64,000 bases of DNA from a virus (IMGVR_UViG_3300044798_000244:1-64000), one strand, 5' to 3'. Shown: positions 1,615-27,373, counted from the stretch's first letter. Translations and numbers: made by a program. Notes: generated by a model from the sequence alone, not told the origin.

Positions 1615-2118
1615 CTACATTATTTTGATCTTCAGCTGAATTGCTAAAGATTCACCACCAAGCTGCACAGTCCTCTCAACACCAAACGAGAGGCCAGCAA
1701 TGAGTGTGCCTGTATTGTCTGAAGATGTGCAGAGAAAAGCTCCGCTAATAGGTCCGATATTACCACCGGAAGCAATAACTATCAACTCCTTTGAAATGAC
1801 TCGCCAATCACCGTCATCTTTCTCAATCACGGGAAAGCCTACAGACGTTCGCTCTATTTTTTGTCTGGCGTACCCATTTCCGGAGGGCTCCCCAGGAACG
1901 GTAGTTAAGACGGATGTCCTGGCAAGCGAACCATTATACAGACCAACAAAAAAATCTGTCATGCCAAAATAGTTCGTGTCTTTATCGCGGAAAAATGTTT
2001 CAAGAATCGCCTTCTCACCATCTTCCACAATGAGATTTTTCTTGTCCCGCACTTCCCAGAGAATCTTTCCGGCCCGAAGATGCTGTACAGTCCAGAGAGA
2101 TTCATAATTGAGATTCAT
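1615..2118 (-). CDS. hypothetical tail or baseplate-associated protein
   Basis: 167-aa ORF between a gpI-like gene and the fiber. Its ATGA start overlaps the stop of the upstream endonuclease gene. No recognisable motif. Confidence 0.35.
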   Translation of the reverse strand: MNLNYESLWTVQHLRAGKILWEVRDKKNLIVEDGEKAILETFFRDKDTNYFGMTDFFVGLYNGSLARTSVLTTVPGEPSGNGYARQKIERTSVGFPVIEKDDGDWRVISKELIVIASGGNIGPISGAFLCTSSDNTGTLIAGLSFGVERTVQLGGESLAIQLKIKIM

Positions 2119-2792
2119 AGTAAGAACCCTTGAATTTTAAGTATTAGTTTTGGTATATCTTTCAACTCATGTTCCCAAATCACTAGGGTCTTATAGCCTT
2201 GGGATTCAAATAGTTTGATTCGAGGTTCCACCTCTTCTGGTTTGTGCCAGTAATCGCCAAATAATTCAATCAGAAGCGGTTTGGATACATGAACGAAATC
2301 AGGGCATTTGCCTGTGATAATCAATTGACCATCACCAACAAAGCGAACTTGGTCTGGGAAGTTTTCATCAAAAAATTGTTGAAGAAACACCTCAGGTTTA
2401 TTAGGTGATGAGTGAATAGCCTTGTGTTGTTTAGAAGCATACTCAGGATCTTGCCAAAGTTGAAGATGGGCATCCCTATTCTTCTTGCAGGTTTCAGGAG
2501 AAGGAGATTTTCCTCTATTAGCATTACCTATTTTCTTAAACACCTCAGGAGAAAGATTCCTACGGGCATCGCCCATCTTCTTGCGAGTTTCAGGAGAAGG
2601 ATTTCTATGACTATCACCCATTTTCTTACGAATTTCCACAGACCAATGCCGTCCGTAGTTAGGAGCATTTTCTCTTTTGGTTTCTCCTCGTTTAGCCTTG
2701 CAAATAGCACATGGGCAAGCTTCTTTGTGAGGATCACCTCTCTTGGCCTTGCAAACACTGCATTGGCAATCTTCTTTATGACCTTTTGGCAT
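2115..2792 (-). CDS. free-standing homing-endonuclease-like protein: zinc-ribbon repeats, NUMOD3 repeats, and a Vsr/DUF559-type PD-(D/E)xK nuclease
   Basis: Tandem CxxC...CxxC ribbons (HKEDCQCSVCKAKRGDPHKEACPCAICKAKRGE). NUMOD3-like repeats (SPETRKKMGDARRN, repeated). C-terminal PDFVH..LIELFGDYWH..GYKTLVIWEHEL, which resembles Vsr. Paralogous to 12515..13279 and 26564..27373. Confidence 0.6.
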   Translation of the reverse strand: MPKGHKEDCQCSVCKAKRGDPHKEACPCAICKAKRGETKRENAPNYGRHWSVEIRKKMGDSHRNPSPETRKKMGDARRNLSPEVFKKIGNANRGKSPSPETCKKNRDAHLQLWQDPEYASKQHKAIHSSPNKPEVFLQQFFDENFPDQVRFVGDGQLIITGKCPDFVHVSKPLLIELFGDYWHKPEEVEPRIKLFESQGYKTLVIWEHELKDIPKLILKIQGFLL

Positions 2793-2803
2793 ACTATATT
2801 ATA

Positions 2804-3229
2804 CTAGGATTCCATCTCAATCAATTCCACATCAACTGAATCCAGTTTGCAAATCTGCCTAAAGGTTGGGCTGATGTTACCAGCCTCGTCCTGTTGATAA
2901 CGAACATACACAGAAGCAGGAGCTGGGGTAACATCTAAAGTCAGCACACCTGTCGCATAATTAACAGTGCCTAAATATGTATAGGCGCCTACAGTCCCAG
3001 AAAACGATCCTGTTCCATCACCATTATCGCTATCTGTTATCTGATAAACATCCCCAACAAACACCCGGACTGTTTCAGGTTTGATGTCTGTGGCATCTAA
3101 TGCTTCGCCCCAATTGCATAATGATGAATACGTTGAGGAAAGCGCCCTCTTAATCTCGAGCGTCATATTGACGTAGGCTACCCCATCAAGATTGTCTATT
3201 GCCGCAAGAACATGACTATACTTTATCAT
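2804..3229 (-). CDS. baseplate protein, gpI-like by position
   Basis: 141-aa ORF immediately after the gpJ-like gene in the P2-type V-W-J-I order. No diagnostic motif. Confidence 0.3.
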   Translation of the reverse strand: MIKYSHVLAAIDNLDGVAYVNMTLEIKRALSSTYSSLCNWGEALDATDIKPETVRVFVGDVYQITDSDNGDGTGSFSGTVGAYTYLGTVNYATGVLTLDVTPAPASVYVRYQQDEAGNISPTFRQICKLDSVDVELIEMES

Positions 3230-3262
3230 CGTTCCAATTTTGGTTGTAGTACCAAGCGTAAA

Positions 3263-4540
3263 CTACTCTGCCAGAACATCCTCAATATCAGCCTGTGTTT
3301 GGGACATAGAATGTCCTGTTGTCACCTTGACAGTGAGTACAGAAATTACATCCAGAATAACGGGATCTATCCATTCATATTTTGTAGTCAGCACCGACTT
3401 TAGATAAATTGCTTCTGCAACTAGAGCCTTAAATGCAACATCGGGAATTACCCAATCCTGAAGAATTATTGAGAGCCTTGCTATGCCCCGCATAGCGAGA
3501 AGGGAAGTCGCACCGATAGCTTCTGCTTCTTCTTTCTCACCCCAAGCATTAGCATCAGCTACACCTGAGTAGTTCATGAGAATTGAAATGAAATCAGCTT
3601 TAGTAACTGCTCTATCGCCTGTACGGAAAACTTGGGGGGCCTCTACACGAATCTCCTCAATCCCCTCTTCATCATCTCCACCAAGAAAAGAACTAGGGTT
3701 CGTTACCGAAACTGTTACTACAGTACTACCTGAATCATAGATAACACTGTTAACAGTCTGAATACGGTCAGCATATGTAACGTTTCCTGACAGACCAGCA
3801 GACTTAATGTACTGGATCAGTATGACAGCTCCTGAGGTGGGCGATTCTCCATTCACATCATCTCCAAACAAGACAGACACATTCCCGTCCATCTCATCAA
3901 TAATTCGATAATGTTCAGAAGTGCTGTCGCTATCTAAAAACGAAGAAACAAGAGACCACTCGGTACCGTCTACAAGAACTCGAAGAGTTGGATTTTCTGT
4001 ATCAGCAGAATTCTCAACATATGTGTCACTTATCAGATACTCTTGACTAACCGCTCCAGCAGATGTAATCTCTGTCTGAACCAACTCACCTTGAATACCA
4101 CTAACTGTTACATCAAGCTGACCCTTCTGTATAGCACCACTCTCATTAGTAAGATACTTTACTCCATCTGAAGTCTGACATTCGGTGTACTTAGGAATGT
4201 ACACAATGGTAGTTAGAGGAGCAGCAATAGAGAATTCAAGATCCCCTACTGCTGAGCTCTTTCTCTTTGGATGGTAATTCAGAAGGGACACTAGATTTAC
4301 AACACTAGATCGATTTTGAGCGGTGGTGAGATATGACTCTTCTGCTCGACGTTCTGCATAAAACATACAGAGGTTGAGGACATAAGCCAAAAACTCAATG
4401 AGCATTTCTCCGCTGGCAGATCTATAAACATCTCGCCAAGCATCATTTGCTTTAAGTCGGGCTTGGAGCTGCAGGACTAAGAGGTCGAAGTCGTAGCTCA
4501 CATATGAAAGAAGATTAGCCATACTATAATACCCCACCAA
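3263..4540 (-). CDS. baseplate wedge protein, Baseplate_J / T4 gp6-like
   Basis: 425-aa ORF directly downstream of the gpW/gp25 homolog. Size and position match gpJ/gp6. Acidic, beta-rich. Confidence 0.5.
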   Translation of the reverse strand: MVGYYSMANLLSYVSYDFDLLVLQLQARLKANDAWRDVYRSASGEMLIEFLAYVLNLCMFYAERRAEESYLTTAQNRSSVVNLVSLLNYHPKRKSSAVGDLEFSIAAPLTTIVYIPKYTECQTSDGVKYLTNESGAIQKGQLDVTVSGIQGELVQTEITSAGAVSQEYLISDTYVENSADTENPTLRVLVDGTEWSLVSSFLDSDSTSEHYRIIDEMDGNVSVLFGDDVNGESPTSGAVILIQYIKSAGLSGNVTYADRIQTVNSVIYDSGSTVVTVSVTNPSSFLGGDDEEGIEEIRVEAPQVFRTGDRAVTKADFISILMNYSGVADANAWGEKEEAEAIGATSLLAMRGIARLSIILQDWVIPDVAFKALVAEAIYLKSVLTTKYEWIDPVILDVISVLTVKVTTGHSMSQTQADIEDVLAE

Positions 4541-4581
4541 AAAGACCTAGTACCTTCATTATGTTAGAAGAAGTGTCTTTT

Positions 4582-4980
4582 CTAGGTTGTGCTTCCCAAG
4601 GATGTTTTGAACTCGAAGATATTAGAGTGCCCGCGAATCGAGAATGCAATTGTTATTGAGACCGTACTGCGGTCCGGATCAGCCTGAAGTTCGACTTCTT
4701 GAACGAGAGCACGGTCGTCCCACGCTTCAATAGTATCTTTAACCTGCCTTGAAAGAACCTTCATCATCGTTTGTGTTATGTTTTCGAATAACACTCCCCG
4801 CAAATTACCTCCAAATGCGGGAAGCATCACGCGCTCCCCCTGTGAAGTTCTCAAGATATTATCTATAGATGTCATCACAGATGCAGCATTTTCGACTAAC
4901 TTAAGCCGACCCTGCCCATCTTGAATGAGTCGGTGATCAAGGTCTGACCATACAACTCCTACTTTCACAGAAGCGGTCAT
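4582..4980 (-). CDS. gp25: baseplate wedge subunit gp25/gpW
   Basis: 132 aa, the same length as T4 gp25. The motif ERVMLPAFGGNLRGVLFENIT matches T4 gp25 (SRPFDPEFGCDLSDQLFENMT), the gpW/gp25 signature. Confidence 0.7.
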   Translation of the reverse strand: MTASVKVGVVWSDLDHRLIQDGQGRLKLVENAASVMTSIDNILRTSQGERVMLPAFGGNLRGVLFENITQTMMKVLSRQVKDTIEAWDDRALVQEVELQADPDRSTVSITIAFSIRGHSNIFEFKTSLGSTT

Positions 4981-5004
4981 ATTATTATACTCCCTGCCTA
5001 TGAA

Positions 5005-5337
5005 CTACCCAGCATAAATCTTTCGATCAGGAGAAGAAATCTTTGCCCCACACCCCGTTATTGCACCATCTGTTATTAGCAGTTTCCCCTCACAGAATGT
5101 CTTGCTGATCACTGGATATATAGTTTGTGGACCATGATCACTACAGTTAAATACTGCTCCGTTGATCGCTACTTCTAACCCCGCAGCAAACAGTGTTGGT
5201 GTTGATTGTCCAGAAATAGTAATAGAACCACTGTGGGACGCACCATCACCAACACAAGAAATCCTCCTACTCTGTCCAAAAAGCCTACGGAGAAATTCAG
5301 TTGTTCCTAATAATGCTGTTCCGAAACGACCAAACAT
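5005..5337 (-). CDS. PAAR-repeat spike-tip protein (gp5.4-like)
   Basis: 110 aa with repeated Gly/Ala-rich PAAR-like segments (ISCVGDGASHSGS..AINGAVFNCSDHG..ITDGAITGCGA) and conserved Cys/His. Located downstream of the gpV-like spike genes. Confidence 0.45.
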   Translation of the reverse strand: MFGRFGTALLGTTEFLRRLFGQSRRISCVGDGASHSGSITISGQSTPTLFAAGLEVAINGAVFNCSDHGPQTIYPVISKTFCEGKLLITDGAITGCGAKISSPDRKIYAG

Positions 5338-5660
5338 TATGCTTCAACCTTTGGAACAATCCCTGTTGGTTGCCCATCAAGAATCTTACCAACTTGACCA
5401 ACAACCAAAGCAGAAAATCGTCTTGGCATTTGGGTTTTCAACAGCTCAACCTCTGATGAGGTCAGGTCCACTTCATCAGTTGTAGCTAACTTGACTCCAA
5501 GAGTAAACAGACTGCCCATCTCTGCATATGTACAAGACTGTTCCCGGGGTTGATTCACTGCTGCGAGAAGAACATTCCTAAGTAACAAGTCTGATTCGGG
5601 CCCATCCTTAAGAATTTCGCCGGTAAATGCTCTCAGTGGTGTTGTAAGAAGTATTTTCAT
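5337..5660 (-). CDS. hypothetical baseplate-associated protein
   Basis: 107-aa ORF abutting its neighbours in the baseplate block. Confidence 0.3.
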   Translation of the reverse strand: MKILLTTPLRAFTGEILKDGPESDLLLRNVLLAAVNQPREQSCTYAEMGSLFTLGVKLATTDEVDLTSSEVELLKTQMPRRFSALVVGQVGKILDGQPTGIVPKVEA

Positions 5661-5720
5661 GCTGTTCCTTTCCTAATTAGCTATTAACCTCAACAAAAAC
5701 GATTAATCTTTCATATTATT

Positions 5721-7205
5721 TTATGCCATTGCCGTAATGCGGCCGTTGGCAGTGGTGATCGAAGTAATTCCAACCAATGAGTATGCCCCATCGGCTATGT
5801 AGGTAATCTGTGTTTTTCCAGTAACAATTCCACCTGCCAATGAGGTAGAGTCAACTACTGTACCCGCCGATGCGGCCTGCGTCACACCATTTGTACCGCT
5901 AAGATTGAAGGCGGTATTGGCCCTTATCGTGGCGGCGAAGATATTACCAAAAAACTCAGTATCCATCGCTGCAAAAGCACTTGCGGCTGTCCCGTGTACC
6001 CGTATGGCCGTATGAGTGCTTGCGCTTCCCCCAACGGTTCGCCCGTTGTCATATTCAAAATCAAGACAATCGGTCACCTTATACAGCCAAAAACAACTGG
6101 TGTCTGTTGCAACCCAACCCGCACCACTCCAATAAACATCAAAACCAAAAGCGTTGTTATCCGGCCCATAAGCCAATGTAGAGAAACAACCGGTCGAGTT
6201 GTTCTGAATCAACAACTGAGAGGGGCCAATGGTCACGGGATTTAGAGATAATCCTGCAAGACTGGGACTGGCCGTGGTTCGACAATCCTGATTGAGACTG
6301 CTACTCGCAGTAACCGTGAGAGTTTGTCCGGCCGTTATAGCCAGACCGTGCACGCCTGTAAGTAAAGCGGCGTGCGTTGCAATAGCCCCGGATGTCTCAT
6401 AAGCCAGAGCAGGGATATCTGTAGTCTCTAATACTCGAAACGTCGGTGCCGCGTCGTCTCCTGAGATCGGACCAATGAGAACCTGTTTAGTTACCTGCGT
6501 GTCGAGAGACAACGCCTGACCAGACAATCCCAACAGCACGTCCGCCGACGTAGCCAGTGTAACAGCGTCGTGCAACCCTGGCACGGCTGCGAATCCAAAC
6601 GTCGTGGGAGTTAGGGCTTGCAAGACATGGCCCGTCGTCAACCCGGAGACTGTGTGATCTGAACTATTCAGAACATGAGCTTGGTTGTGGTGGTCATTAG
6701 CCCCAATAGTACTAAGACTATTATGTGCGATATTTCCTGGTACAACATCAATTGTTGCCCCGGTACCAATAAGTGCACCAGTACCTATTCCTCCAATACT
6801 TATCTTTGTTGATCCAGCAGTGAGATTCCCTTTAGATACAGTAGGCTCAAATCCTGTATGTCCAGAAGAGGCATAATCTAAATTACCAAAATTGTTATGA
6901 ATCATGGTGCCAGCCGTGAGATGTAGAGCGGCTGCATCACCTGAAGAATGTGCTATAGCAACTGTACTCTCTTGTGCTCTTGTAACATTGTAAACATTTG
7001 GTGTACCTGAATATTCAGCAGTTACTATTTCAGTTGATGAATCATCAGCAGGATTTGGATAAACAGCCATATTCCAAAACACCAGCACAAACTCTCCTGC
7101 GGTTACTGGAAGGTTGTGTCCAGGGGATACAGTGATCTGAGTATCACCAATTAGCATATTTGATGCTAAGGTAGCCGAACAGAAGTTTTTGAGTATTTTG
7201 GCCAT
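5721..7205 (-). CDS. putative central spike beta-helix or short tail-fiber protein
   Basis: 494 aa, extremely Gly/Ser/Thr/Ala-rich, consistent with a repetitive beta-structure. Follows the gpV-like OB-fold spike gene with an ATGA overlap at 7205. Confidence 0.4.
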   Translation of the reverse strand: MAKILKNFCSATLASNMLIGDTQITVSPGHNLPVTAGEFVLVFWNMAVYPNPADDSSTEIVTAEYSGTPNVYNVTRAQESTVAIAHSSGDAAALHLTAGTMIHNNFGNLDYASSGHTGFEPTVSKGNLTAGSTKISIGGIGTGALIGTGATIDVVPGNIAHNSLSTIGANDHHNQAHVLNSSDHTVSGLTTGHVLQALTPTTFGFAAVPGLHDAVTLATSADVLLGLSGQALSLDTQVTKQVLIGPISGDDAAPTFRVLETTDIPALAYETSGAIATHAALLTGVHGLAITAGQTLTVTASSSLNQDCRTTASPSLAGLSLNPVTIGPSQLLIQNNSTGCFSTLAYGPDNNAFGFDVYWSGAGWVATDTSCFWLYKVTDCLDFEYDNGRTVGGSASTHTAIRVHGTAASAFAAMDTEFFGNIFAATIRANTAFNLSGTNGVTQAASAGTVVDSTSLAGGIVTGKTQITYIADGAYSLVGITSITTANGRITAMA

Positions 7206-7765
7206 TATGGATTCAAATCAATTCGAGCACCTGTAATAGACACATCACCTGTAGCAGTCACTGTGGTATCTCCACTGGCATTTATTGTTACATCTTTTGC
7301 TGATATAACAATGCTCCCAGAAGAGTCCATCTGGATGTATTTTCCAGTTGGATGAATAATTCTTATTTCTTTTGCTGTGTCATCTATGTAGATTCCAAGC
7401 CCCGCTTTAGTCTTGATAATCCTTCGGTTTGGATAGTTGGTTGTCCTCTCTGATGGAAGACCAAGAACTCTATTCGGAGCTTCAGCCCAGTAGACTGGCT
7501 GATAAACATCTCCGCCCTCGAAGAAAACAAATACTTGTGAGTCTATCTCAGGAACAGCAAAATGTCCAAACCCAGATCCTGAACCAGAAAAAATTGGTTG
7601 CGCAGGAACCGCCCACGGAAGCTTCGCTGTTGCTATGTCCTCTGTAAAAATACCAAACACCTGAACCTTAATTCGACCTAACTTGTCCGGGTCAACATTG
7701 TCTAAAACCACACCTCTATACTGGTACGGAAAGCGTAGATCATCCTGTTCAAAAGTATTGTTCAT
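7205..7765 (-). CDS. baseplate spike protein, gpV / T4 gp5 N-terminal OB-domain-like
   Basis: The motif RGVVLDNVDPDKLGRIKVQVFGI...LPWAVP is the classic gpV/VgrG N-terminal signature. Confidence 0.65.
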   Translation of the reverse strand: MNNTFEQDDLRFPYQYRGVVLDNVDPDKLGRIKVQVFGIFTEDIATAKLPWAVPAQPIFSGSGSGFGHFAVPEIDSQVFVFFEGGDVYQPVYWAEAPNRVLGLPSERTTNYPNRRIIKTKAGLGIYIDDTAKEIRIIHPTGKYIQMDSSGSIVISAKDVTINASGDTTVTATGDVSITGARIDLNP

Positions 7766-9255: not shown

Positions 9256-9266
9256 TTAGAAACCTC

Positions 9267-11670: not shown

Positions 11671-11941
11671 TTTGAGCCCGTTCCTGCTGCTCCTGCAAAT
11701 CTCGAATCAGCCGTCCATAGTGCCAGTCCAGCAACCGTAAAGGTGTATTTCGAATATCTCCTAGTGTAAATCCGGGGACATGTTTACACAGTTGGAACTC
11801 CCGCTCCAAAACAATTTCTAAGGGCGGAACCAACCGGAAGAAAGAGGTCAAGTCGAAAGGGAACGGAAACGTCTTCCTCCTGTCCACATTTAGGACAAGG
11901 CATGATAATAGAAGTGGCAGGACCATGATCCATTTGCTCAT
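11663..11941 (-). CDS. hypothetical small protein, overlaps neighbours
   Basis: 92-aa ORF in the gap upstream of the tape measure gene. Its real start is probably internal. Confidence 0.2.
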   Translation of the reverse strand: MSKWIMVLPLLLSCLVLNVDRRKTFPFPFDLTSFFRLVPPLEIVLEREFQLCKHVPGFTLGDIRNTPLRLLDWHYGRLIRDLQEQQERAQNG

Positions 11942-12512
11942 GAAAAAGACGGAGACGAGCAGTATCTTTAGTTGACCAGCTTCTCATCTCAATAGCTGTT
12001 TTCACAGGATCACAACCATCAATTGATCGGGCCCAACGGTAGAGATATGCATCACCAACTTGCTGCTGGTACTTCTCAATCTCAATCTCATCAGCTACAG
12101 TCAAAAGTCGAAGACTAACAACTTTGCCACTGGGCAATGTAACTGGGACAGGCGGCTTGTAATCATCAGGCAGAGTAACTACGTTCAGTTTGCGAAGATC
12201 AACAGAAAAATCAACTGGGCTTAGACAATGTGAGCAGGTGCCTTGAGTTTTGATCATTTCACAAAACGAATTGATGTACTCAAAAATAATCAAGTAGAAA
12301 CGGTCTCCCAACGTTAGATTTTTAGGGTCGATTCCTTTCACAACACGATTCAGCACCAGCAGAAAGTTTCGTTCTAGATTCGCTGGATTGATTTGTGCTA
12401 AGATGAGTTCATCTTCGCCATTATATGGTCTGATCATCACATCAGAAGATTTAATGCCTGGATAAGAAAGACATTTTGAAGGAAGATCCACATGAATAAA
12501 TTGTTCTGGCAT
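11784..12512 (-). CDS. hypothetical tail-assembly protein with Cys clusters
   Basis: 242 aa with CxxC-type cysteines (CSHC...CPKCG). Position upstream of the tape measure gene. Confidence 0.3.
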   Translation of the reverse strand: MPEQFIHVDLPSKCLSYPGIKSSDVMIRPYNGEDELILAQINPANLERNFLLVLNRVVKGIDPKNLTLGDRFYLIIFEYINSFCEMIKTQGTCSHCLSPVDFSVDLRKLNVVTLPDDYKPPVPVTLPSGKVVSLRLLTVADEIEIEKYQQQVGDAYLYRWARSIDGCDPVKTAIEMRSWSTKDTARLRLFHEQMDHGPATSIIMPCPKCGQEEDVSVPFRLDLFLPVGSALRNCFGAGVPTV

Positions 12513-12514
12513 CT

Positions 12515-13279
12515 TTAATTTCCTAACTCGATAAAATTAGCTAGTTTCACAAGTAGTTTAGGTGTATCTGTCAGTTCGTGTTCCCAAATCACTAAGGTCT
12601 TGTAGCCTTGGGATTCGAATAATTTGATTCTCTCTTGCTCATGCTGTGCTTCTGGAATACCTGTTACTGCTTGTCCGTGCCAGTAATCACCAAACAGTTC
12701 AATTAGAAGAGGTCTGGAGGTATGGACGAAGTCAGGGCATTTACCTGCAATAATCAGTTGACCATCTCCGACGAAACGAAACAGACCAGGGGAGCTACTA
12801 TTTATAATGGTTTGTAAGAACTTCTCAAGCTTATTCTGAGAAACTTGTCTGGCCTTCATCTGCTTAGCTACATACTCAGAATCTTGCCAAAGCTCTTTTT
12901 GGGCTTCTCTTAGCTTCTTGCGAGTTTCAGAAGAACGATTTCTATTAGCATCACCTATCTTTTTACGTGTCTCAGCAGAAGGATTTCTTTTAGCATCACC
13001 TATCTTCTTGCAAGTTTCAGGAGAAAGAGTTTTTCCTCGAAGGGCATCACTTTTCTTCTTGCACGTTTCAGGAGATTGGTGCTGTCCATAGTTAGGGCTG
13101 TTTTCACCCTTCATTTCACCTCTTGTAGATCTGCAAGAAATGCACTGACAACCTTCTTTGTGGAGATCACCTCTTCTATTTCTACAGGAAGCACATTGAC
13201 AATCTTCTTCGTGAAGATCACCACGCTTAGCCTTGCAAATGCAACACTGACAATCTTCTTTATGTGATTTTCTACTCAT
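12515..13279 (-). CDS. free-standing homing-endonuclease-like protein (zinc ribbons, NUMOD3, Vsr-like nuclease)
   Basis: HKEDCQCCICKAKRGDLHEEDCQCASCRNRRGDLHKEGCQCISCRS. NUMOD3-like repeats (SPETCKKIGDAKRN and others). PDFVH..LIELFGDYWH..GYKTLVIWEHEL. Paralog of 2115..2792. Confidence 0.6.
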   Translation of the reverse strand: MSRKSHKEDCQCCICKAKRGDLHEEDCQCASCRNRRGDLHKEGCQCISCRSTRGEMKGENSPNYGQHQSPETCKKKSDALRGKTLSPETCKKIGDAKRNPSAETRKKIGDANRNRSSETRKKLREAQKELWQDSEYVAKQMKARQVSQNKLEKFLQTIINSSSPGLFRFVGDGQLIIAGKCPDFVHTSRPLLIELFGDYWHGQAVTGIPEAQHEQERIKLFESQGYKTLVIWEHELTDTPKLLVKLANFIELGN

Positions 13280-13280
13280 A

Positions 13281-13952
13281 CTACAGAATTTTACCTAATC
13301 CTCTCGAGACAGCACCACCGCCCACACCCATAACAGCATTAGCTGCCACTCCGCCCACGACCCCACCAACGACTCCTCCGATCAACCCTGCGATACCTGA
13401 TCTGATAGAACCTGTAAGACTCCACATCTCTATATTGTCGACACTAAGTGATATATCTACACGCTGTATATCATTAGCATTGTATGACAAGGCCACCGAA
13501 GGTTTTGATGTTGGGAAGGTGCCCTTCATGATAAACTTAACAGATTCAATTCCCGAACGGTCATAAAGAGAAACGTAAATTTGTTTTGAGTAGTTGTTTT
13601 TGGGATGGTGATAGCCCTGCTCATCTATCATCAGATGATACCAGCTATAGAAGTAATCCAAAACTGTGTTATCCACAGGCAACATGAACGACAAATTCAC
13701 GGTCTTAATACTCTGAAGACCTGCATAGAATCTCAAAAATGCTCCATGCTGCATCTTTACAACATCGCCCAGACCATAGGGCCCAAACGAAACGTCCTGA
13801 CAGTACTGAGAAACAAGATACCCAACTACACCATTGATATTACTGGGCATAAAGAGCTGCCAGAGATACTTCCTCTGAAGCATCCATACTCTGGACAGAG
13901 CTTTGATACCTATCCCAGAAAAATCAAACGGCAGGTCTTGGAGTCCGATCAT
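13281..13952 (-). CDS. hypothetical tail protein, possibly a tube paralog, with a Gly-rich C-terminus
   Basis: 223 aa. C-terminal GGVVGGVVGGVAANAVMGVGGG. Adjacent to the tube gene. Confidence 0.3.
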   Translation of the reverse strand: MIGLQDLPFDFSGIGIKALSRVWMLQRKYLWQLFMPSNINGVVGYLVSQYCQDVSFGPYGLGDVVKMQHGAFLRFYAGLQSIKTVNLSFMLPVDNTVLDYFYSWYHLMIDEQGYHHPKNNYSKQIYVSLYDRSGIESVKFIMKGTFPTSKPSVALSYNANDIQRVDISLSVDNIEMWSLTGSIRSGIAGLIGGVVGGVVGGVAANAVMGVGGGAVSRGLGKIL

Positions 13953-13979: not shown

Positions 13980-14495
13980 TTAGGTCACCAACTCCCACCA
14001 ATCATATGAAAACGTAGCGGAGAATATCATTGTAGAATTGCTTCCATATGAGGTGGAGATGTCTCCCATCGACTCCAGGTAACACCCGACCAACTTGATG
14101 CTCAACCAAGTGGCCCCAGCCTGATCCAAACACTGGAAGTACAGATCCGTTTTGACTAAAGGATCAGGGCTTCCAAGACCTGTCCTAGTGTTGTTAATGA
14201 CCTGCTGCCAATTATACAGTGCAGTAAAGGTCTTCTTATCTGCTGTACTCTCCAAGAAGTCCAAGCTCCAGGTTTGGGTCATCGCAGCTTTACCTGGAAC
14301 TTTGAATCCGGGAGTTCCCCGGAAGGGAATCTTAATACTTTGTGTGGCTCGACCAGGCAGGCCAGCAGACTGACACCGAGCCGCCAGGGCCGTTCCATCT
14401 CCACCACCAATCAACTTCGGGAATACAGTAGCCCAGAGGTAACTCTTGGCAGGATTGGTAAGATTATTACGAAGTACATCGACGGACATATCCAT
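13980..14495 (-). CDS. gp19: tail tube protein gp19
   Basis: 171 aa. N-terminal YLWATVFP and C-terminal FSYDWWE match T4 gp19 (NLFQVEI...LDYWE). Immediately downstream of the sheath gene. Confidence 0.6.
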   Translation of the reverse strand: MDMSVDVLRNNLTNPAKSYLWATVFPKLIGGGDGTALAARCQSAGLPGRATQSIKIPFRGTPGFKVPGKAAMTQTWSLDFLESTADKKTFTALYNWQQVINNTRTGLGSPDPLVKTDLYFQCLDQAGATWLSIKLVGCYLESMGDISTSYGSNSTMIFSATFSYDWWELVT

Positions 14496-14557: not shown

Positions 14558-16177
14558 CTACCACATAATTCCGCGGGCAACAAGTTCTTCAAACGAAGCG
14601 CCAGTTGACGTAATTATACTTTGCAACTTGATGTACTCTGCCGCCCGAATCGGCTTGATAAACACATCCACATTCATCTGATTCGAGTCAATGACCGCAG
14701 GAGTGTTATTCGTTGCACTACAAAGAACGTGATACCCTTTATCTCCACCCTCTTTCTGAAAAGCACCTTGTGCAGACAACCTATCCAAGTACTCTTCCAG
14801 TAAAGCTACAACTCGGAACCGCGTAATTTCATCATTGGGCTCAAAGAGGAACGATCGCAAGGAGATAGCCATTGCCTTCTCAATAACGATCAGAAGACGT
14901 CTGACATTAACACTGCTTAACGCAGACATTTTCTTCTGCAGAGTCTTCTGACCCCAAATCGCAATGCCCTCACCTCGGAACAACTGAATTGGATTGATTT
15001 GCACAGGATACAATGTGTCCCGCTCACCTTGAGTAAATACATACGAGGTAGAAATGACATTCAGAATACCTCGGTTGAATCCTGCAGGAGCGTCCCACGG
15101 ATTGGCCACGTAATCATTGTAAGCCATTTGTGCAGCCACGTGTCCTGACGGAGGAACGTAAATCAGCTTATCATTATACGAATCGTAAATCTGAACCCAC
15201 GGGGCATACAAAGCACAATAATTCGAATTGATGTTTTGCGTGGTACTCCGAAACGTGAGCATGTCCGTTGGATCCTGGACTGACAGCCACGGCATATCCA
15301 GAACTGCAATACAATCAGCACGGTCCTCAGCAATAGCCTGCATATTAGACTGCACGGCCGTAGCCGTCTCACCACCATTGATAAGGATACGGATATCAAT
15401 ATCATCTGGGTTGGCAAACTCATCCCAACCGGTGATTAACTCTCCTGAAGAAATTGCACTTCCATCGGATCCACAAGCAAAGTCTAATGCTGTAGCTTGT
15501 ACTTTAGGAAGGATGGTATTTTCAATAGTAGTGTTATCAAAGACCTGGATATACTGACTGATTCCATTCACACGATCTTCAAGGTACAGATCCTTACCAA
15601 AACCATCGACTTTGGTTTGACGAGACACTTGGAACTTCTCAAGCTCCTGATCAGTACCATCATCGTCCTCATAGTACACAACAATCTCGAAGGTGTACCG
15701 ATCACTAATCACTTCATCTGATACGGTCTTTACATTCTGAATCTTCACCCGGATCTTGTTATTCCAAACACCAGGATCTTTCCCAATGATCTGGAAAAGG
15801 ACAACACTAAGACCGGTACTAACACCAAAGGTAGCAGTAGACTTTCCAGTGGTTATTGCAGCGTTGGCCGTCGATGAATCAGACCGTATGATGTTCACAC
15901 CACCATACAATGCTCCACTGGCGACCCGAAGACAGTACAGAGTGTTACCCTGGGCCAGATACGCCAATGCAGCATAATGGAAGTAGTGCCCAGACGAAGG
16001 ATCCGGCTCACCATACTCCTCGATAAACTGCTTATCACTGGTTATCAGAGTGATATCAGCAGTACTTCCCTTGGCCGAATAGCCAACAATTGCAGCAGAC
16101 GCACTTGCTACCGTCGGGACGATGTCAGAAATGTCTTTCTCGCTTGAATAAACGCCGGGTGACAACAGGATGGCCAT
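14558..16177 (-). CDS. gp18: contractile tail sheath protein gp18
   Basis: 539 aa. The N-terminus MAILLSPGVYSSEKDISD matches T4 gp18 (MTLLSPGIELKETT). AAGGAG ribosome-binding site 8 nt upstream. Confidence 0.75.
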   Translation of the reverse strand: MAILLSPGVYSSEKDISDIVPTVASASAAIVGYSAKGSTADITLITSDKQFIEEYGEPDPSSGHYFHYAALAYLAQGNTLYCLRVASGALYGGVNIIRSDSSTANAAITTGKSTATFGVSTGLSVVLFQIIGKDPGVWNNKIRVKIQNVKTVSDEVISDRYTFEIVVYYEDDDGTDQELEKFQVSRQTKVDGFGKDLYLEDRVNGISQYIQVFDNTTIENTILPKVQATALDFACGSDGSAISSGELITGWDEFANPDDIDIRILINGGETATAVQSNMQAIAEDRADCIAVLDMPWLSVQDPTDMLTFRSTTQNINSNYCALYAPWVQIYDSYNDKLIYVPPSGHVAAQMAYNDYVANPWDAPAGFNRGILNVISTSYVFTQGERDTLYPVQINPIQLFRGEGIAIWGQKTLQKKMSALSSVNVRRLLIVIEKAMAISLRSFLFEPNDEITRFRVVALLEEYLDRLSAQGAFQKEGGDKGYHVLCSATNNTPAVIDSNQMNVDVFIKPIRAAEYIKLQSIITSTGASFEELVARGIMW

Positions 16178-16257
16178 CTTAGAACTCCTTGCTTAAAAAC
16201 ATCTACGTTTAAGTTTTCCTTGTTAAATTAAAGTAAAACTGGATTAGCTATAATTTC

Positions 16258-17676
16258 TTATCTACCAATGGTTTTTAACAATTCTTTCTCTGGAACCAGA
16301 TTATAATCACAAGCGAAACATCCACCAACTGTTTGTGGTGCTCCTTCTAGGGTTGTTAGTTGATTATAATCACAAGCGAAATATCTACCAACTTCTTGTG
16401 GTGCACCCTCTAGGGTTGTTAGTTGATTAGAATCACAGTGGAAATTCCCACCAACTGTTTGTGGTGCTCCTTCTAGGGTTGTTAGTTGATTAGAATCACA
16501 GTGGAAATTCCCACCAACTGTTTGTGGTGCTCCTTCTAGGGTTGTTAGTTGATTATAATCACAAGCGAAATTCCCACCAACTGTTTGTGGTGCACCCTCT
16601 AGGGTTGTTAGTTGATTAGAATCACAAGCGAAATATCCACCAACTGTTTGTGGTGCACCCTCTAGGGTTGTTAGTTGATTAGAATCACAAGCGAAATATC
16701 CACCAACTGTTTGTGGTGCACCCTCTAGGGTTGTTAGTTGATTATAATCACAAGCGAAATCCCTACCAACTTCTTGTGGTGCACCCTCTAGGGTTGTTAG
16801 TTGATTAGAATCACAGTGGAAATTCCCACCAACATACTTAAAAGTTATAGGTAGATGTTTAAGATATAAACCACTAAAATCAACATCTTCTTCTGTAGAA
16901 TATGTTCCATCTGAATTCTTTGTGCACCTAGATATAATCTCCTGTATATATTTTTGAGTTCTGGAAGAAAGTTCTTCTTCTGAAGCAGGCCTAACTTTAT
17001 CAACTAAGAAATCAACTCCAATGGCTTTTTCAATAGTTTTAATAGAGACGTGCTTATCTTGTTCGTTAAAGCATTCCATCTCACCATTAGGAGCAACTGC
17101 AACAGCATATTTTTTACTTTTCTTCTTATCAATAACAATGTAAATCTTGATTCCAGCTTTATAGTATGCCTTCCAATACACTGCTGTTTTTCCTGAAATA
17201 CACCATTTGGTATTAGCACCATAAAAACACGAGGCACCATGTGATTCTGGGACAACAATCAGGTAATTATCGGTTTCATCCACAATTGTTGATTCTGATT
17301 TCTGTTCTCGTTTGACTTCACCTTTGGTTTGTTTAGTTGAAGTTTGTTGTGCAGCTTGATCTGCAGATTCTAGATCAAGTTTATAGATATCTGCTTTATC
17401 ACCAGCTAAAATTCGTCGTTGAACTTGTTGATCAAACAACTTAACAACATCAATAATATGTCGTTCTCGATCTGGATTAACTGTGTATTGTTTACACATC
17501 CATTGAAGATATTTCTTAGTTTCGGAGGGGTCTTCAGTTCGGAATTCATTAAAAACACTTTCAGGTACTTTCTTGGTATCTACAAACTGGGCATAAGTAT
17601 CTTTCCAACCTTCAAACAGAGGTTGTTCAGAAGATGATTTCAAAAGGTGTTCAAAAAGCTGTTGGAAAGAATTCAT
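16258..17676 (-). CDS. protein with nine C-terminal 20-aa tandem repeats that resemble leucine-rich repeats, plus an N-terminal Cys-containing domain
   Basis: Repeats of GGNF(H/A)CD(S/Y)NQLTTLEGAPQTV, nine in a row. The N-terminal domain has ASCFYGANTKWCISGK. Inserted between the gp15-like and gp18 genes. Confidence 0.5.
   Translation of the reverse strand: MNSFQQLFEHLLKSSSEQPLFEGWKDTYAQFVDTKKVPESVFNEFRTEDPSETKKYLQWMCKQYTVNPDRERHIIDVVKLFDQQVQRRILAGDKADIYKLDLESADQAAQQTSTKQTKGEVKREQKSESTIVDETDNYLIVVPESHGASCFYGANTKWCISGKTAVYWKAYYKAGIKIYIVIDKKKSKKYAVAVAPNGEMECFNEQDKHVSIKTIEKAIGVDFLVDKVRPASEEELSSRTQKYIQEIISRCTKNSDGTYSTEEDVDFSGLYLKHLPITFKYVGGNFHCDSNQLTTLEGAPQEVGRDFACDYNQLTTLEGAPQTVGGYFACDSNQLTTLEGAPQTVGGYFACDSNQLTTLEGAPQTVGGNFACDYNQLTTLEGAPQTVGGNFHCDSNQLTTLEGAPQTVGGNFHCDSNQLTTLEGAPQEVGRYFACDYNQLTTLEGAPQTVGGCFACDYNLVPEKELLKTIGR
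16298..16840. repeat. nine near-perfect tandem 60-bp repeats, coding the C-terminus of 16258..17676
   Basis: The unit ttgattataatcacaagcgaaa...ccaccaactgtttgtggtgc(t/a)cc(t/c)tctagggttgttag is repeated head-to-tail. No spacers, so it is not CRISPR. Confidence 0.85.
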
Positions 17677-18623: not shown

Positions 18624-18628
18624 TATTA

Positions 18629-18820: not shown

Positions 18821-18827
18821 ATTTCAC

Positions 18828-19310: not shown

Positions 19311-19312
19311 TT

Positions 19313-20447: not shown

Positions 20448-20457
20448 AGTAGTTCAC

Positions 20458-21411: not shown

Positions 21412-21416
21412 CGGTA

Positions 21417-22007: not shown

Positions 22008-22012
22008 TGCAG

Positions 22013-23383: not shown

Positions 23384-25715
23384 CCATTTTCAGATAAGCA
23401 TTAAGCCTCTCAGGATGACTTCGAAGGAATTGTTCTACATGGGCTGCTTTCTGATGAGCCTCTTCGTATGGAGTACCTTCTCTCATCATACGACCACGCT
23501 CATACAATTCATGAAAGAGATTGAACCTATGTTCAGAAGGATCTCTCATTCTCTCGATCCAGATTTCATCTTTAGGTATGAAATCCCACCTGAAATGATG
23601 ACCGCCTTCTGTGTAGTCATCATCATATGTATTCCGGATCTCTTCACCATCAACTAAGTAGACCAGAACATCATTTGTGGTTTCTCCCCAGAGTTCCTTT
23701 GAGATACCATCTGCTTCCTGAATGGACTCTTGCACTCCTGCAGACCTCCACGCTTCCAGGGATGCCCATCGAACGGTGATCGTGGGTCTTTTAACTTCTA
23801 GCTTCTCCGGCTCCTCACCTGTAAAAGCTAGAGAGAGCCCACTTGGAAGATTGTTTTCTACCCATCTTGCTTGTGTTCTGCTCGAAGGAATAATAACACT
23901 GCTTCCTTGTAGATCTTGAAGCATTTTTCTGCAAACATTATTATAAAATTCGAGAGGTTCTGGTTTTTCAAAATCAGAAACAACAACGTCCTGCCCTTCA
24001 TACGGAGTTGTCACCTCAACAAGAACTTCATCTTTTGTAGGGGTTGACAATATAAAATCACCTTTCTTAGACCATACTGCGAACAGCCAACCCCTATCCA
24101 TCAAAAAGTTCAGAACTTCAGTATACAGAAGATCGCGTTTCCTATCCCTCTCCTTCTTATCCTCCTGAATAGACTCGCCAAGAAGCTTTCGAAGATAATC
24201 TGAAGAATAAATCGCCTCAGAACCTACTTCCGAAGCAAGCTCTTCAGGGCCGTACCGAAGGTACAGATCAACTATAGCACTTCGTTGGACCCTTGTAATT
24301 GTTTTTAGATTCTCTGCACCTAAATGTTGATGACTTACAAGTATCCGAATCGCCCCAGATTCAAGCAGCTCATTAACCTCAGTTCCAGCATCAAGAGCTG
24401 TACGTATGTGTGCAACAGGAACATGTATTAGAGTTCCATCTGAAAGAAGCCAGAACTTAAAATAGGCTTCTTCCCCAGGATACATAGAGGGGGTTCGCAT
24501 GTCCTCTTCTGAAGCAGGTCCAAACTCATCTAGCAGAACTTGCTGCGGTTCTGGAAGAGTTGCTACTGCTTCCTGGATGGGTTCACCAATTTCTTTGAAA
24601 TGGAACCTCTCAAGACCTTCAGTCTTCCCCATAAGAAGTCTGCATACTATATCTGTTAAGATATGGGCACTTCTCGTCTCCAGATCTCCTGGAATCCGAT
24701 GATAATCTTGTCCCACTTCAACATAGATTGATTCAAGATTATATGAAGCAATTACCTCTTCAATAGCAGAACGTTGTCCTTCAGAAGGCTCAAAACTGTT
24801 ACTTAAGTAAATGTCAAGATTACAATCCTGCCAAACATCTCCTTTTATTGCCCCCTCGTCCTGGACTTCCCAAGAAACACCAGCTGCATCTAGAATATCA
24901 GAATGCTGTTCACGCGTTTCATCGTTTCCTACAACCGAACGACCATTATTAAGAAGAAAAAATCGGCCTATTGGAAGTTTAGATATACCTTTTCGTCTTC
25001 TCCAGTATAGAAATAATTTCTTCTGGGCAGGAGGAAGATCATCTCCGATAGTTTCTAAAAGTAAACTTTGTGATTCTTTGGCCACTCTACGACCAAGAGC
25101 TTGTCCAGCGGCCTTGAACTGCTGAGCTGTTCGTGTGGCTCCGGCTTCTGCTTGCTGGATCAGATCCTTGAACTCTTTCCCCAGCCAATTAGCAATAGTG
25201 GTTTTGTAAAAAGGAAGTGTTCGCATCAGAACCTGTACGTGCTTGCAATACTGCCCATATTTTTTGGGGTTCCGAATATCAGGTGATCGATCCTCTGGTT
25301 CACCATACTTAGCATGTTTTTGAGTAAGAAGGTAATCCCCACCATAGTATGTTTGGGCAGGACATTCACAACTCAATTCAACGTTACCATCTTTGAACAG
25401 CTTAGCAGCAACTTTCCTTAGGTCTGCTCGTTTCTTATCTTTGGTCCAGTTACGCCGATCTGAGACCAGCTTCTGAACATCTTTTTCTATATCTTTCCAA
25501 CGGACAACAACATCATACTGAAGACCTTCCTCTGTTCCGCTGTGAACACTAAATGTCCATATATCCTTCTGAATACTAGAAAGTCGAACACCGCCTTTGG
25601 AAATCACACCTTTGACCTTGACTGGATTTGAAAAAAAATCAGGGAAGAGTCGGGTTATTGACTTCTGCTTGGTGTTCAACTGACCAAGAGTGGCTTCTAT
25701 AAGTTTGTGGAACAT
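23358..25715 (-). CDS. large protein with an N-terminal SWIM-type zinc finger
   Basis: CECPAQTYYGGDYLLTQ...YCKHVQVLM fits the SWIM pattern CxC...CxH. 785 aa. Confidence 0.45.
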   Translation of the reverse strand: MFHKLIEATLGQLNTKQKSITRLFPDFFSNPVKVKGVISKGGVRLSSIQKDIWTFSVHSGTEEGLQYDVVVRWKDIEKDVQKLVSDRRNWTKDKKRADLRKVAAKLFKDGNVELSCECPAQTYYGGDYLLTQKHAKYGEPEDRSPDIRNPKKYGQYCKHVQVLMRTLPFYKTTIANWLGKEFKDLIQQAEAGATRTAQQFKAAGQALGRRVAKESQSLLLETIGDDLPPAQKKLFLYWRRRKGISKLPIGRFFLLNNGRSVVGNDETREQHSDILDAAGVSWEVQDEGAIKGDVWQDCNLDIYLSNSFEPSEGQRSAIEEVIASYNLESIYVEVGQDYHRIPGDLETRSAHILTDIVCRLLMGKTEGLERFHFKEIGEPIQEAVATLPEPQQVLLDEFGPASEEDMRTPSMYPGEEAYFKFWLLSDGTLIHVPVAHIRTALDAGTEVNELLESGAIRILVSHQHLGAENLKTITRVQRSAIVDLYLRYGPEELASEVGSEAIYSSDYLRKLLGESIQEDKKERDRKRDLLYTEVLNFLMDRGWLFAVWSKKGDFILSTPTKDEVLVEVTTPYEGQDVVVSDFEKPEPLEFYNNVCRKMLQDLQGSSVIIPSSRTQARWVENNLPSGLSLAFTGEEPEKLEVKRPTITVRWASLEAWRSAGVQESIQEADGISKELWGETTNDVLVYLVDGEEIRNTYDDDYTEGGHHFRWDFIPKDEIWIERMRDPSEHRFNLFHELYERGRMMREGTPYEEAHQKAAHVEQFLRSHPERLNAYLKMVGWEAKNV

Positions 25716-25716
25716 A

Positions 25717-26256
25717 TTATCCTTGTGCTGGCAGTGAACTAATCAACGGATCTGTTAGGAGTCGGAGATTTCGAGTTTTTCCAATATCTGTAACAAAAAC
25801 CTCATCTATCTCGAGACCCCAACCATTAGCAGCATCGCTGATATCCTTGCGAAGCTCTTCCTTAGTATTGCTTATATCACAGCACTCTTTGAAAGTTTTC
25901 TGACTGAAGTACTCGCACAAAACACCAAGAGCTAGGGTCGTAAGAGACTTATCAGCATCATGTACATTTAGAAAGTTCTTGCGTGCATCACAAACTTTGT
26001 ATTGAATAGCACCAGATATAATAATATCGTAACCATCCAGTGTCCGACAGCTTTGATTCTTCAGATCTACAACCTGTGGAGCAGTGTATGCCCACCAAAT
26101 ACTTTGTATCAGAGGCCAGTAGAACCAAATCCCAGGACCAATTTCACAAATACTATGTCCACATGTAATCCGCAGTCCGGTCTGCCAAGGTTCCAATATC
26201 TGGATACGTGGAACAAAGGAAAGAAGCTTCTCAAGTAGATCTCGCAACCATGCCAT
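25717..26256 (-). CDS. SPFH/band-7 (stomatin/prohibitin-like) domain protein
   Basis: 179 aa with a beta-alpha pattern and a GWGLEIDEVFVTDI segment typical of the SPFH core. Hydrophobic N-terminus. Confidence 0.4.
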   Translation of the reverse strand: MAWLRDLLEKLLSFVPRIQILEPWQTGLRITCGHSICEIGPGIWFYWPLIQSIWWAYTAPQVVDLKNQSCRTLDGYDIIISGAIQYKVCDARKNFLNVHDADKSLTTLALGVLCEYFSQKTFKECCDISNTKEELRKDISDAANGWGLEIDEVFVTDIGKTRNLRLLTDPLISSLPAQG

Positions 26257-26294
26257 TCAACACCTTTGTTAGCTTTAAGTAGCAGTGCAAAAAA

Positions 26295-26567
26295 TTAAAT
26301 TTTTCGATTATATATCACTCGCTTAACTTTAGTAATAACACCTTTTGGTATCACAATAACGCCACCTACATCATCATTATCACCAATTGTGCTGGCCAGT
26401 CGAATGACCATAGCATCTTGATTTAGAAGCCAGCCAACTGATACACATTCGAGGGACTCTGTTTTCCCTGCTTCTTCTTGGGAAATCCAAGAATCTGAAG
26501 AAACAATGTCGTTCCAGTAGCAAACAAGAAGGTCTGCATATTTGAATCTCGCCCAGTTGATTTTCAT
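26295..26567 (-). CDS. hypothetical protein
   Basis: 90 aa. Its ATGA start overlaps the stop of the upstream endonuclease gene. Confidence 0.35.
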   Translation of the reverse strand: MKINWARFKYADLLVCYWNDIVSSDSWISQEEAGKTESLECVSVGWLLNQDAMVIRLASTIGDNDDVGGVIVIPKGVITKVKRVIYNRKI

Positions 26568-27373
26568 TGGTGCTGGACCCCAATAAAATTAAGCATTTTC
26601 TGAGTTAAGAGATTTACATCTTTCAACTCATGTTCCCAGATTACCAAGGTCTTGTAACCCGCTTCTTCAAACAGGTTACTTCTTTCTTGTTCGTGCTGCT
26701 TCTCAGGTACACCTGTTACTGCTTGGGAGTGCCAGTAATCACCAAAAAGTTCAATGATCAGTTTCTTATCTTCATTAACGAAATCGGGGCACTTACCAGA
26801 GATAATTTTCTTGCCATCACCAGTAAACTGAAATCCTGCAGTGATCTGGATAATCCATTCTGCAAGAAATATCTCAAGTTTGTTCTGAGCTACTTGTCTG
26901 GCAACCATCTGTTTGGCTACGTATTCAGGATCTTGCCAATGTTGAGTTTGTATTTCTTTCAGCTTCTTGCAAGTTTCAGGAGAACGTTTCTTTCCTCTAT
27001 TACTATTTGCTCTTTTCTTGTTTTCTTCAGGGGAACGAATTCTTCCTCTGTTAGCATCTTGCATCTTCTTAAGAGTTTCAGAAGAAGAATGACATTCACC
27101 TCTTTTATTCTTGCAAGAAGCACATTGACAATCGTCCCTATGAACTCTTCTTCTATTAGAATCACCTATCCTCTTACAAGCTTCAAACGAAAGATGGTGT
27201 CCATAGTTAGGATTATTCTCACCTTTTGTTTCACCTCTTTTAGATCTACAAGAAGCACATTGGCAATTCTCTAGATGAGGTTCCTTCCGTTTAGCTCTAC
27301 AAACTCCGCACGGACAATCTTCTTTATGTGGTTTTCGACCCACTATTATTGCCTTTTCAAAAATACCACCCAA
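26564..27373 (-). CDS. free-standing homing-endonuclease-like protein (zinc ribbons, NUMOD3, Vsr-like nuclease)
   Basis: HKEDCPCGVCRAKRKEPHLENCQCASCRSKRGE...DDCQCASCKNKRGE. NUMOD3-like SPEENKKRANSNRGK. LIIELFGDYWH...GYKTLVIWEHEL. Confidence 0.6.
   Translation of the reverse strand: MGGIFEKAIIVGRKPHKEDCPCGVCRAKRKEPHLENCQCASCRSKRGETKGENNPNYGHHLSFEACKRIGDSNRRRVHRDDCQCASCKNKRGECHSSSETLKKMQDANRGRIRSPEENKKRANSNRGKKRSPETCKKLKEIQTQHWQDPEYVAKQMVARQVAQNKLEIFLAEWIIQITAGFQFTGDGKKIISGKCPDFVNEDKKLIIELFGDYWHSQAVTGVPEKQHEQERSNLFEEAGYKTLVIWEHELKDVNLLTQKMLNFIGVQHQ

Follow-up and report, generated by a model that had tools for sequence, protein, structure and literature searches.

EDxHD-family endonuclease genes and a twice-interrupted major capsid gene in the structural module of an uncultured T4-like myovirus

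The 64,000-nucleotide stretch of viral DNA IMGVR_UViG_3300044798_000244:1-64000 (hereafter, the window) belongs to an uncultured and distant T4-like myovirus, as revealed by PHROG and Pfam scans, and all of its credible genes lie on the minus strand, to which the window coordinates given below refer. Inserted among its tail, baseplate and head genes are three paralogous genes, here called copies 1, 2 and 3, whose products combine Cys/His units and NUMOD3 repeats with a C-terminal nuclease domain of the Vsr fold. By sequence comparison and structural modelling, the three proteins are members of the EDxHD (Vsr-like) homing endonuclease family. We consider it likely that they are functional, free-standing homing endonucleases, and that a fifth endonuclease of the window is encoded within an intron.

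The EDxHD family was originally proposed on the basis of ocean metagenome sequences (Dassa et al. 2009, PMC2677866). Its members possess N-terminal NUMOD motifs and a C-terminal Vsr-like nuclease, and their genes are known from group I introns, from the space between split-intein halves, and as free-standing genes; the Hef proteins of T-even phages have also been assigned to it (Taylor et al. 2011, PMC3239194). A first-pass annotation of the window had called the architecture of the three proteins unusual, yet the combination of NUMOD motifs with a Vsr-like nuclease was described in 2009-2011 (PMC2677866, PMC3239194). Here, we describe the three genes and their insertion sites, together with a free-standing HNH endonuclease gene and a major capsid gene that is interrupted twice.

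Three paralogous proteins of the EDxHD family

Copies 1 and 2 occupy positions 2115..2792 (225 amino acids) and 12515..13279 (254 amino acids), and copy 3 positions 26564..27343 (259 amino acids). The three paralogous open reading frames (ORFs) reported earlier at 2115-2792, 12515-13279 and 26564-27373 were thus recovered, with pairwise amino acid identities of 50-59% (blastp E 1e-76 to 1e-92), and only the extent of the third was revised. The ORF of copy 3 opens with a TTG at 27373, but its most likely start, judged from the sequence, is the GTG at 27343, two bases past the upstream stop codon, because the resulting VGRKPHKEDC matches the N-termini of the other two copies.

Nucleotide identity among the copies is level along the gene, at 55-79% per 30-codon block, and not raised at the 3' ends as had been proposed. 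The ratio of nonsynonymous to synonymous substitution (dN/dS) is 0.18-0.25 and dS is saturated at 1.3-1.8, indicating that these are old paralogs under purifying selection, neither recent duplicates nor wrecks. A recent tandem duplication was ruled out, since dS is saturated and two proteins from other contigs, P0002 and P0005, interleave with the window copies (P-numbers denote homologous proteins and L-numbers loci of related uncultured phages). A fourth paralog, P0003 (228 amino acids, with a single Cys/His unit), is listed for the same 80,329-nucleotide metagenome contig, outside the window, and the four paralogs form one subfamily with P0002 and P0005. On L035, a 3.8-kilobase contig of the same sample, P0003 lies directly upstream of a gene for QueC, a 7-cyano-7-deazaguanine synthase (761-1447 and 1539-2327), which raises the possibility that the phage DNA carries a 7-deazaguanine modification.

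Each of the three proteins is modular. Pfam NUMOD3 is matched above its cut-off in all of them (28.8-31.3 bits versus 20.4), and the repeats announced by the first-pass annotation are present as S-x-E-T-x-K-K motifs, three in copy 1 and four each in copies 2 and 3. The NUMOD region, of the NUMOD3 sub-type, is N-terminal to the nuclease, the reverse of the order in GIY-YIG and HNH enzymes. The Cys-rich region had been read as a CxxC-x10-CxxC zinc ribbon. Its actual motif is a 17-residue unit, H-x3-C-x-C-x2-C-(K/R)-x-(K/R)-R-G, of which copies 1, 2 and 3 have two, three and three. In copy 2 the three units are in tandem (13133..13264) and constitute a putative zinc knuckle array; copy 1 has the equivalent region at 2700-2780, and copy 3 has it in two parts, at 27248-27328 and 27113-27142, one of its units sitting amid the NUMOD3 repeats. 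No Pfam family scored above its cut-off at these units. In P0003 and in 14 other homologs there is a single unit, comprising one His and three Cys, so that each unit is plausibly an autonomous four-ligand site and not half of a CxxC...CxxC ribbon. The residue pattern suggests metal binding. Between one and five tandem units occur in about 14% of the sampled family members, and all four paralogs possess them. They could represent an undescribed modular zinc-knuckle array for reading DNA, which together with the NUMOD3 helices would set target specificity, changes in the number and position of units retargeting the paralogs to other intergenic junctions; we offer this as a speculation that is unlikely to hold.

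The Vsr-fold nuclease domain extends over 12518..12844 in copy 2 (about residues 146-254), with equivalents at 2118-2411 in copy 1 and 26567-26893 in copy 3. In an alignment of 47 family sequences the invariant residues are E152, G171, D183, E194, G197, H201 and W232 (copy 2 numbering), and the equivalents of E152, D183, E194 and H201 are present in all three copies. A profile built from the family, when compared with the sequences of the Protein Data Bank (PDB), matched first the catalytic domain of I-Bth0305I (3r3p, E 2.2e-6), then Escherichia coli Vsr (1cw0, E 5e-4), and, through its NUMOD part, the DNA-binding domain of I-TevI (E 0.02). An AlphaFold 2 model of copy 2, with a mean predicted local distance difference test (pLDDT) score of 90.4, likewise found 3r3p as its top Foldseek match, with a template modelling (TM) score of 0.76 normalised to the target. 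The active-site residues of I-Bth0305I and Vsr, namely E170/E25, D196/D51, an acidic residue at the position of Vsr F62, and H213/H69, map onto invariant residues of the window family. Hidden Markov model searches placed the C-terminal domains above the cut-off for DUF559 and below that for Vsr, and the predicted fold agrees with the Vsr-like assignment that the first-pass annotation had made.

I-Bth0305I of Bacillus phage 0305phi8-36 (PDB 3R3P; PMC3239194) is therefore the best match in both sequence profile and fold, and it has in common with the window proteins the bipartite layout of NUMOD motifs and Vsr-fold nuclease as well as the conserved Glu, Asp, extra acidic residue and His. The two differ in several respects. 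I-Bth0305I is encoded in a recA intron and carries two NUMOD2-like helix-turn-helix motifs, whereas the window proteins are free-standing and carry NUMOD3 and the HxxxCxCxxC units; identity between the nuclease domains is about 20%; and D222 of I-Bth0305I is replaced by Glu or Pro. This position (D97 in Vsr), which precedes a conserved Arg, is Asp in most homologs and Glu in copies 2 and 3, and copy 1 has Pro there with a Glu two residues upstream. The Vsr-like enzymes of the ocean metagenomes and the T-even Hef proteins belong to the same family, reside in phage DNA, are in some cases free-standing and have N-terminal NUMOD motifs (PMC2677866, PMC3239194). Most published Vsr-like cases lie between the split-intein halves of "fractured" genes of DNA metabolism (PMC2677866), whereas the window genes occupy spacers between genes of the tail, baseplate and head module and break no host gene.

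The Joint Genome Institute (JGI) annotation names these proteins "very-short-patch-repair endonuclease", which would make them genuine Vsr mismatch repair nickases. The fold and several catalytic residues are indeed common to them and to E. coli Vsr (1CW0/1VSR), a chromosomal repair nickase whose gene is not mobile. Structure papers on Vsr place a zinc site at its Cys/His cluster. Where Vsr reads G-C-F-W-H-H-H-H-C, the window family reads G-D-Y-W-H-(K/G/S), lacking the Cys and the trailing His and Cys residues, and the metagenome study describes the Cys/His cluster after WH as a zinc site (PMC2677866). The proteins also fell short of the curated Vsr models: NCBIfam TIGR00632, with its cut-off at 97.85 bits, gave 23.8 and 24.5, and Pfam PF03852 scored 13.7 and 19.1 bits against 27, with no match to copy 1 in either case. 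Additionally, Vsr has no long arm of NUMOD3 and Cys/His modules, the best structure and sequence match is I-Bth0305I, and multiple divergent copies occupy variable intergenic sites. A repair function is thus hardly credible, and the low scores against the curated models indicate that the JGI name describes the fold and not the function.

A second alternative is that the three genes once encoded homing endonucleases and have since lost activity and begun to decay. Copy 1 has no acidic residue at the Asp97/D222 equivalent, and homing endonuclease genes often degenerate after fixation. Against decay, all of the ORFs are intact, dN/dS is low, the other catalytic residues are invariant, and a search of the window for degenerate endonuclease remnants or pseudogene fragments yielded none. 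Furthermore, the "EVEPR" variant of copy 1 recurs in P0014, P0022 and other homologs (six of 120 by motif count), which suggests a conserved sub-type and no lesion. We therefore regard decay as very improbable, and retain the assignment of the three proteins as probably functional members of the EDxHD family.

Insertion sites and gene mobility

Comparison with related phages indicates where the three genes have been inserted. At the copy 1 site, about 17 loci have no insertion, and homologs of the flanking genes 2804-3229 and 1615-2118 are adjacent there. The junction in L008 reads TGA-TT-ATG; that in the window consists of a TAG, an 11-nucleotide leader, the endonuclease ORF and an ATGA overlap. 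Other phages carry other endonucleases at or near this site. In L018 the copy 1 site is taken by a remote member of the family (36% identity), with another between the two wedge genes, where L024 also has one; in L026 an HNH gene occupies the copy 1 site. Copy 2 lies between a tail tube gene (13281-13952) and the baseplate hub gene (11784-12512). Its site is empty in L002, where the tail tube gene has the baseplate hub gene as its immediate downstream neighbour, and the hub gene starts ATGCCAGAA both there and in the window; in L069 an unrelated ORF of 67 amino acids is found instead. At the copy 3 site in L007, the flanking genes overlap as TAATG, and both copy 3 and the 90-amino-acid gene immediately downstream of it (26295-26567, phrog_25889) are missing; L005 has an HNH-like ORF in this interval. 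The 90-residue protein has no relatives in viral contigs.

Insertion was exact, into spacers of a few nucleotides between otherwise adjacent structural genes. The ATGA overlaps of start and stop codons that had been attributed to the three genes exist where copies 1 and 3 meet their downstream genes, the partner of copy 3 being the 90-amino-acid gene, and are lacking in copy 2, which ends TAA-AG-ATG, and at all 5' junctions, where spacers of 11, 1 and 2 nucleotides precede copies 1, 2 and 3. The possibility that the three genes are embedded in introns or inteins was ruled out: relatives have the flanking genes as complete, separate units, and no Rfam intron was detected near the three copies or the HNH gene, even at E<=0.1. 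The adjacent stop and start codons in relatives, and the presence of other endonucleases at the same sites, argue that copies 1-3 are free-standing mobile endonuclease genes. They are absent at these places in related phages and so are not conserved core genes, in keeping with the earlier proposal.

The HNH endonuclease gene (33989..34798) is the second kind of free-standing endonuclease in the window. It encodes an HNH domain (PF01844, 26.7 bits versus 21.4), NUMOD3 (25.3 versus 20.4) and two CxCGC-type fingers, and lies between an 827-amino-acid gene (34865-37348) and the prohead protease gene. L004, L005 and L006 have transfer RNA (tRNA) genes at its place and no HNH gene; one to six tRNA genes occur just upstream of the prohead protease in these relatives (L004 1019-1169, L005 2493-3507, L006 6367-6440), and ARAGORN found none in the 64-kilobase window. 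The first-pass annotation had listed two further endonuclease genes. Both exist, at 29420-30337 and 33989-34798, and the HNH gene is free-standing as stated, whereas the other lies within a group I intron. Together, the five endonuclease genes cover about 6% of the window, a density that is high, as had been noted, and yet within the range of T4-like phages, since such genes are reported to account for 11% of T4 coding sequence (PMC10448857). The Seg (GIY-YIG) and Mob (HNH) endonucleases of T4 have the same lifestyle, being small, densely packed and variably present genes between conserved ones (PMC2988022). They differ from the three paralogs in their catalytic domain, and the HNH gene of the window is a direct analogue of the Mob genes.

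By analogy with I-Bth0305I and the T4 Seg and Mob enzymes, the endonuclease genes would be read through from late structural transcripts, and their products would bind a long target by means of NUMOD3 helices and Cys/His units. The nuclease domains would then dimerise and make a double-strand break in the cognate region of a co-infecting relative that has no such gene, and recombinational repair from the endonuclease-bearing genome would, in turn, transfer the gene to the recipient along with the markers on either side of it. For the HNH gene (33989-34798) the route would be the same, with a different nuclease.

Alternatively, the nucleases could be domesticated enzymes, retained for a benefit to the phage and not as purely selfish homing elements; they might exclude competitor markers, interfere with co-infecting viruses or satellites, or amplify loci. 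Purifying selection on all copies and saturated dS point to long persistence, at least four paralogs have been kept in one genome, and published examples include endonucleases that help a phage to compete (PMC11620839) or to evade immunity (PMC13096335). Sporadic presence, clean empty sites in most relatives and other endonuclease families at the same sites are, however, what selfish turnover predicts. Domestication is also compatible with homing. We consider it an unlikely explanation on balance, and favour selfish, free-standing homing endonucleases.

The twice-interrupted major capsid gene

The remaining endonuclease gene lies within the major capsid gene, which PHROG matches divide between ORFs at 30443-31324 and 28440-28988. 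Uninterrupted capsid genes of relatives encode 460-518 amino acids, and their products align to three segments of the window, thereby defining the exon junctions. Exon 1 (30446..31324) ends ...AIDMQKA and is followed by group I intron 1 (29330..30445, 1116 nucleotides). A mini-exon 2 of 50 nucleotides (29280..29329), encoding HGIDLESELVKFLGGE-V, was delimited by tblastn of the intact capsids of L004, L005 and L006 and by nucleotide comparison. Group I intron 2 (29020..29279, 260 nucleotides, with no ORF) and exon 3 (28440..29019, from ...KFTIDQTG to the stop codon) complete the gene. The spliced ORF encodes 502 amino acids, has no internal stop, and is collinear with the intact capsids of relatives. 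Intron-less alleles read AAAGCT followed directly by CATGGGAT at the first junction; at the second, L004 reads GAGGT followed by TAAGTT, and L005 and L006 differ by one or two bases.

Intron 2 matches the Rfam group I model (RF00028) over its full length at 29067-29289 (51.8 bits versus a cut-off of 50). The core of intron 1 is split by an ORF into a 5' part at about 30445-30338 and a 3' part at about 29478-29330. The two parts can be aligned with the ends of intron 2, in which a peripheral hairpin stands where intron 1 has the ORF. Predicted P1 hairpins place a U.G pair at the 5' splice sites 30446 and 29280, and both introns end ...ATTG. These sequence features show two related group I introns in the major capsid gene, separated by 50 nucleotides, and both are predicted to self-splice.

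The ORF of intron 1 (29420..30337) encodes an endonuclease of 305 amino acids with a CxCGC finger, NUMOD-like repeats and a C-terminal TnsA-like PD-(D/E)xK nuclease. The latter matches Pfam PF08722 (Tn7_TnsA-like_N; 49.2 bits versus 26.5, E 8e-13) and includes YLPDFLV...VLVEVKPE; the NCBIfam TnsA-like model is matched below its cut-off, and sequence searches returned no relative with a solved structure. A finger of the form CxCGC(G)...(H)GH(N/H) is common to this protein (29423-30337), the HNH protein (33992-34798, two copies) and many EDxHD members, among them P0016, P0036, P0041 and P0043, showing that DNA-binding modules are shuffled among endonuclease families. The intron 1 enzyme presumably drives intron homing by cutting intron-less capsid alleles, and the ORF-less intron 2, only 50 nucleotides away, would be close enough to be co-converted with it.

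L004 has a group I intron of its own at a different position of the capsid gene (5194-5458, Rfam 69.6 bits), which suggests that the capsid genes of this clade are recurrent intron targets, and the P7-P9 core motif of the window introns occurs in 28 other viral contigs, several of which have two cores close together. Group I introns of other phages include those of T4 td, nrdB and nrdD, and genes with several introns are exemplified by Twort orf142. As in these known cases, the window introns are of group I, lie in a highly conserved stretch of an essential late gene, and include one with an endonuclease ORF. The window differs in that two homologous introns lie 50 nucleotides apart and in that the ORF encodes a TnsA-like nuclease in place of the usual GIY-YIG, HNH or LAGLIDADG enzyme. 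Introns in phage capsid and tail genes have been documented in Cluster J mycobacteriophages (PMC3706429).

Several observations weigh against the overall interpretation offered here. All three EDxHD copies have a residue other than Asp at the D222/D97 equivalent, and D222A was one of the two substitutions used to inactivate I-Bth0305I (PMC3239194). Pfam DUF559 is matched by a thin margin, at 21.2-26.2 bits versus 20.6. The nearest relatives are only about 70-80% identical in protein sequence, so that recent gain and loss and co-conversion tracts are not visible. Scans of the window for sigma-70 promoters, terminators and the T4 late-promoter motif TATAAATA gave matches at chance level only, and expression is presumed from gene packing. 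Intron 1 scores 34.7 bits against Rfam Intron_gpI on its 3' core, below the cut-off of 50; this low score is explained by the splitting of the core by the ORF. Finally, cleavage and homing are what we infer from sequence and from characterised relatives, and splicing is a prediction.

Genomic setting, family abundance and significance

The neighbouring genes are those expected of a contractile-tailed phage of the T4 type, as judged by PHROG and Pfam matches: baseplate wedge proteins (3263-4540 and 4582-4980), a hub/lysozyme-like protein (7205-7765), the baseplate hub protein already mentioned, two tail tube paralogs (13281-13952 and 13980-14495), the sheath protein (14558-16177), a gp21-type prohead protease (31356-34007) and a gp20-type portal protein (51590-53599), with Cpn10-like and Mre11-like proteins also encoded. 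The two tail tube ORFs were considered as a single split gene, a possibility that was ruled out because they are paralogs of 20% identity and both occur in relatives. No cultured phage is similar at the DNA level (megablast of window positions 1-25000 against 50,697 phage records), and no protein of a cultured phage exceeds 29% identity to the spliced capsid protein. L002 proteins are 70-80% identical to those of the window; one metagenome scan found no relative of the tail tube gene closer than 71% identity.

Other parts of the window also vary among relatives or depart from T4. The portal gene lies about 17 kilobases from the protease and capsid genes (28440-34007), with many small ORFs and the 827-amino-acid gene between them, and the order from portal to capsid differs from that of T4. 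A 472-amino-acid gene (16258-17676), between a 315-amino-acid gene and the sheath gene, is missing from the closest relative, L002; the N-terminal part of its product has a homolog elsewhere in L004, and it represents a variable structural or accessory gene and no endonuclease. Three genes of 494, 107 and 110 amino acids (5005-7205) lie between the hub/lysozyme-like gene and a gp25-like wedge gene. They are missing in L002 and L008 and partly kept in L009, L010, L017, L022 and L025, and the stretch resembles a variable spike or tip region. Downstream of an Mre11/SbcD-like gene (62408-63325) come short ORFs in differing frames at 62124-62411 and 61763-62146, two of them overlapping, and then, at 61255-61869, an ORF for only the C-terminal half of a Rad50/SMC ATPase.

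The EDxHD family, which the first-pass annotation had called rare, is abundant. A profile of the nuclease domain alone matched 8,767 cluster representatives at E<=1e-3, 5,635 at E<=1e-10 and 253 at E<=1e-30 (clusters of 50% identity), and nearly all of the best 150 matches are proteins of 170-360 amino acids with the nuclease domain at the C-terminus. Among cultured phages copy 2 matched just two, and those partially, by tblastn; it is only there that the family is scarce. NUMOD3-like repeats are present in 105 of 194 retrieved relatives with the core motif and a CxCGC-type finger in 65, and at least one HxxxCxCxxC unit occurs in 28 and at least two in eight, so that, on sequence grounds, the family is modular and the window version is one of its sub-types. 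One homolog, P0121 (2,724 amino acids), matches the nuclease domain in four separate stretches and may be either a gene-calling artefact (caused, for example, by a recoded stop codon) or several endonuclease genes fused into one.

The window is thus an ordinary case of mobile-gene crowding, in which new members of a family characterised in 2009-2011 are arranged as expected for T4-like phages. Two features alone are mildly unusual: the HxxxCxCxxC units arranged in tandem, and the double interruption of the capsid gene, with its TnsA-like intron endonuclease. The main value of the analysis lies in correct annotation: the "very-short-patch-repair endonuclease" labels of metagenomic phages denote EDxHD homing endonucleases, and an apparently broken major capsid gene is one interrupted by two introns. 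The four diverged paralogs of a little-studied family in one genome, together with empty-site sequences from relatives, are ready substrates for mapping how NUMOD3 and Cys/His units choose their targets. Intergenic hot spots that hold an EDxHD gene, an HNH gene or nothing, depending on the phage, illustrate the turnover of selfish nucleases in the structural modules of uncultured T4-like phages.

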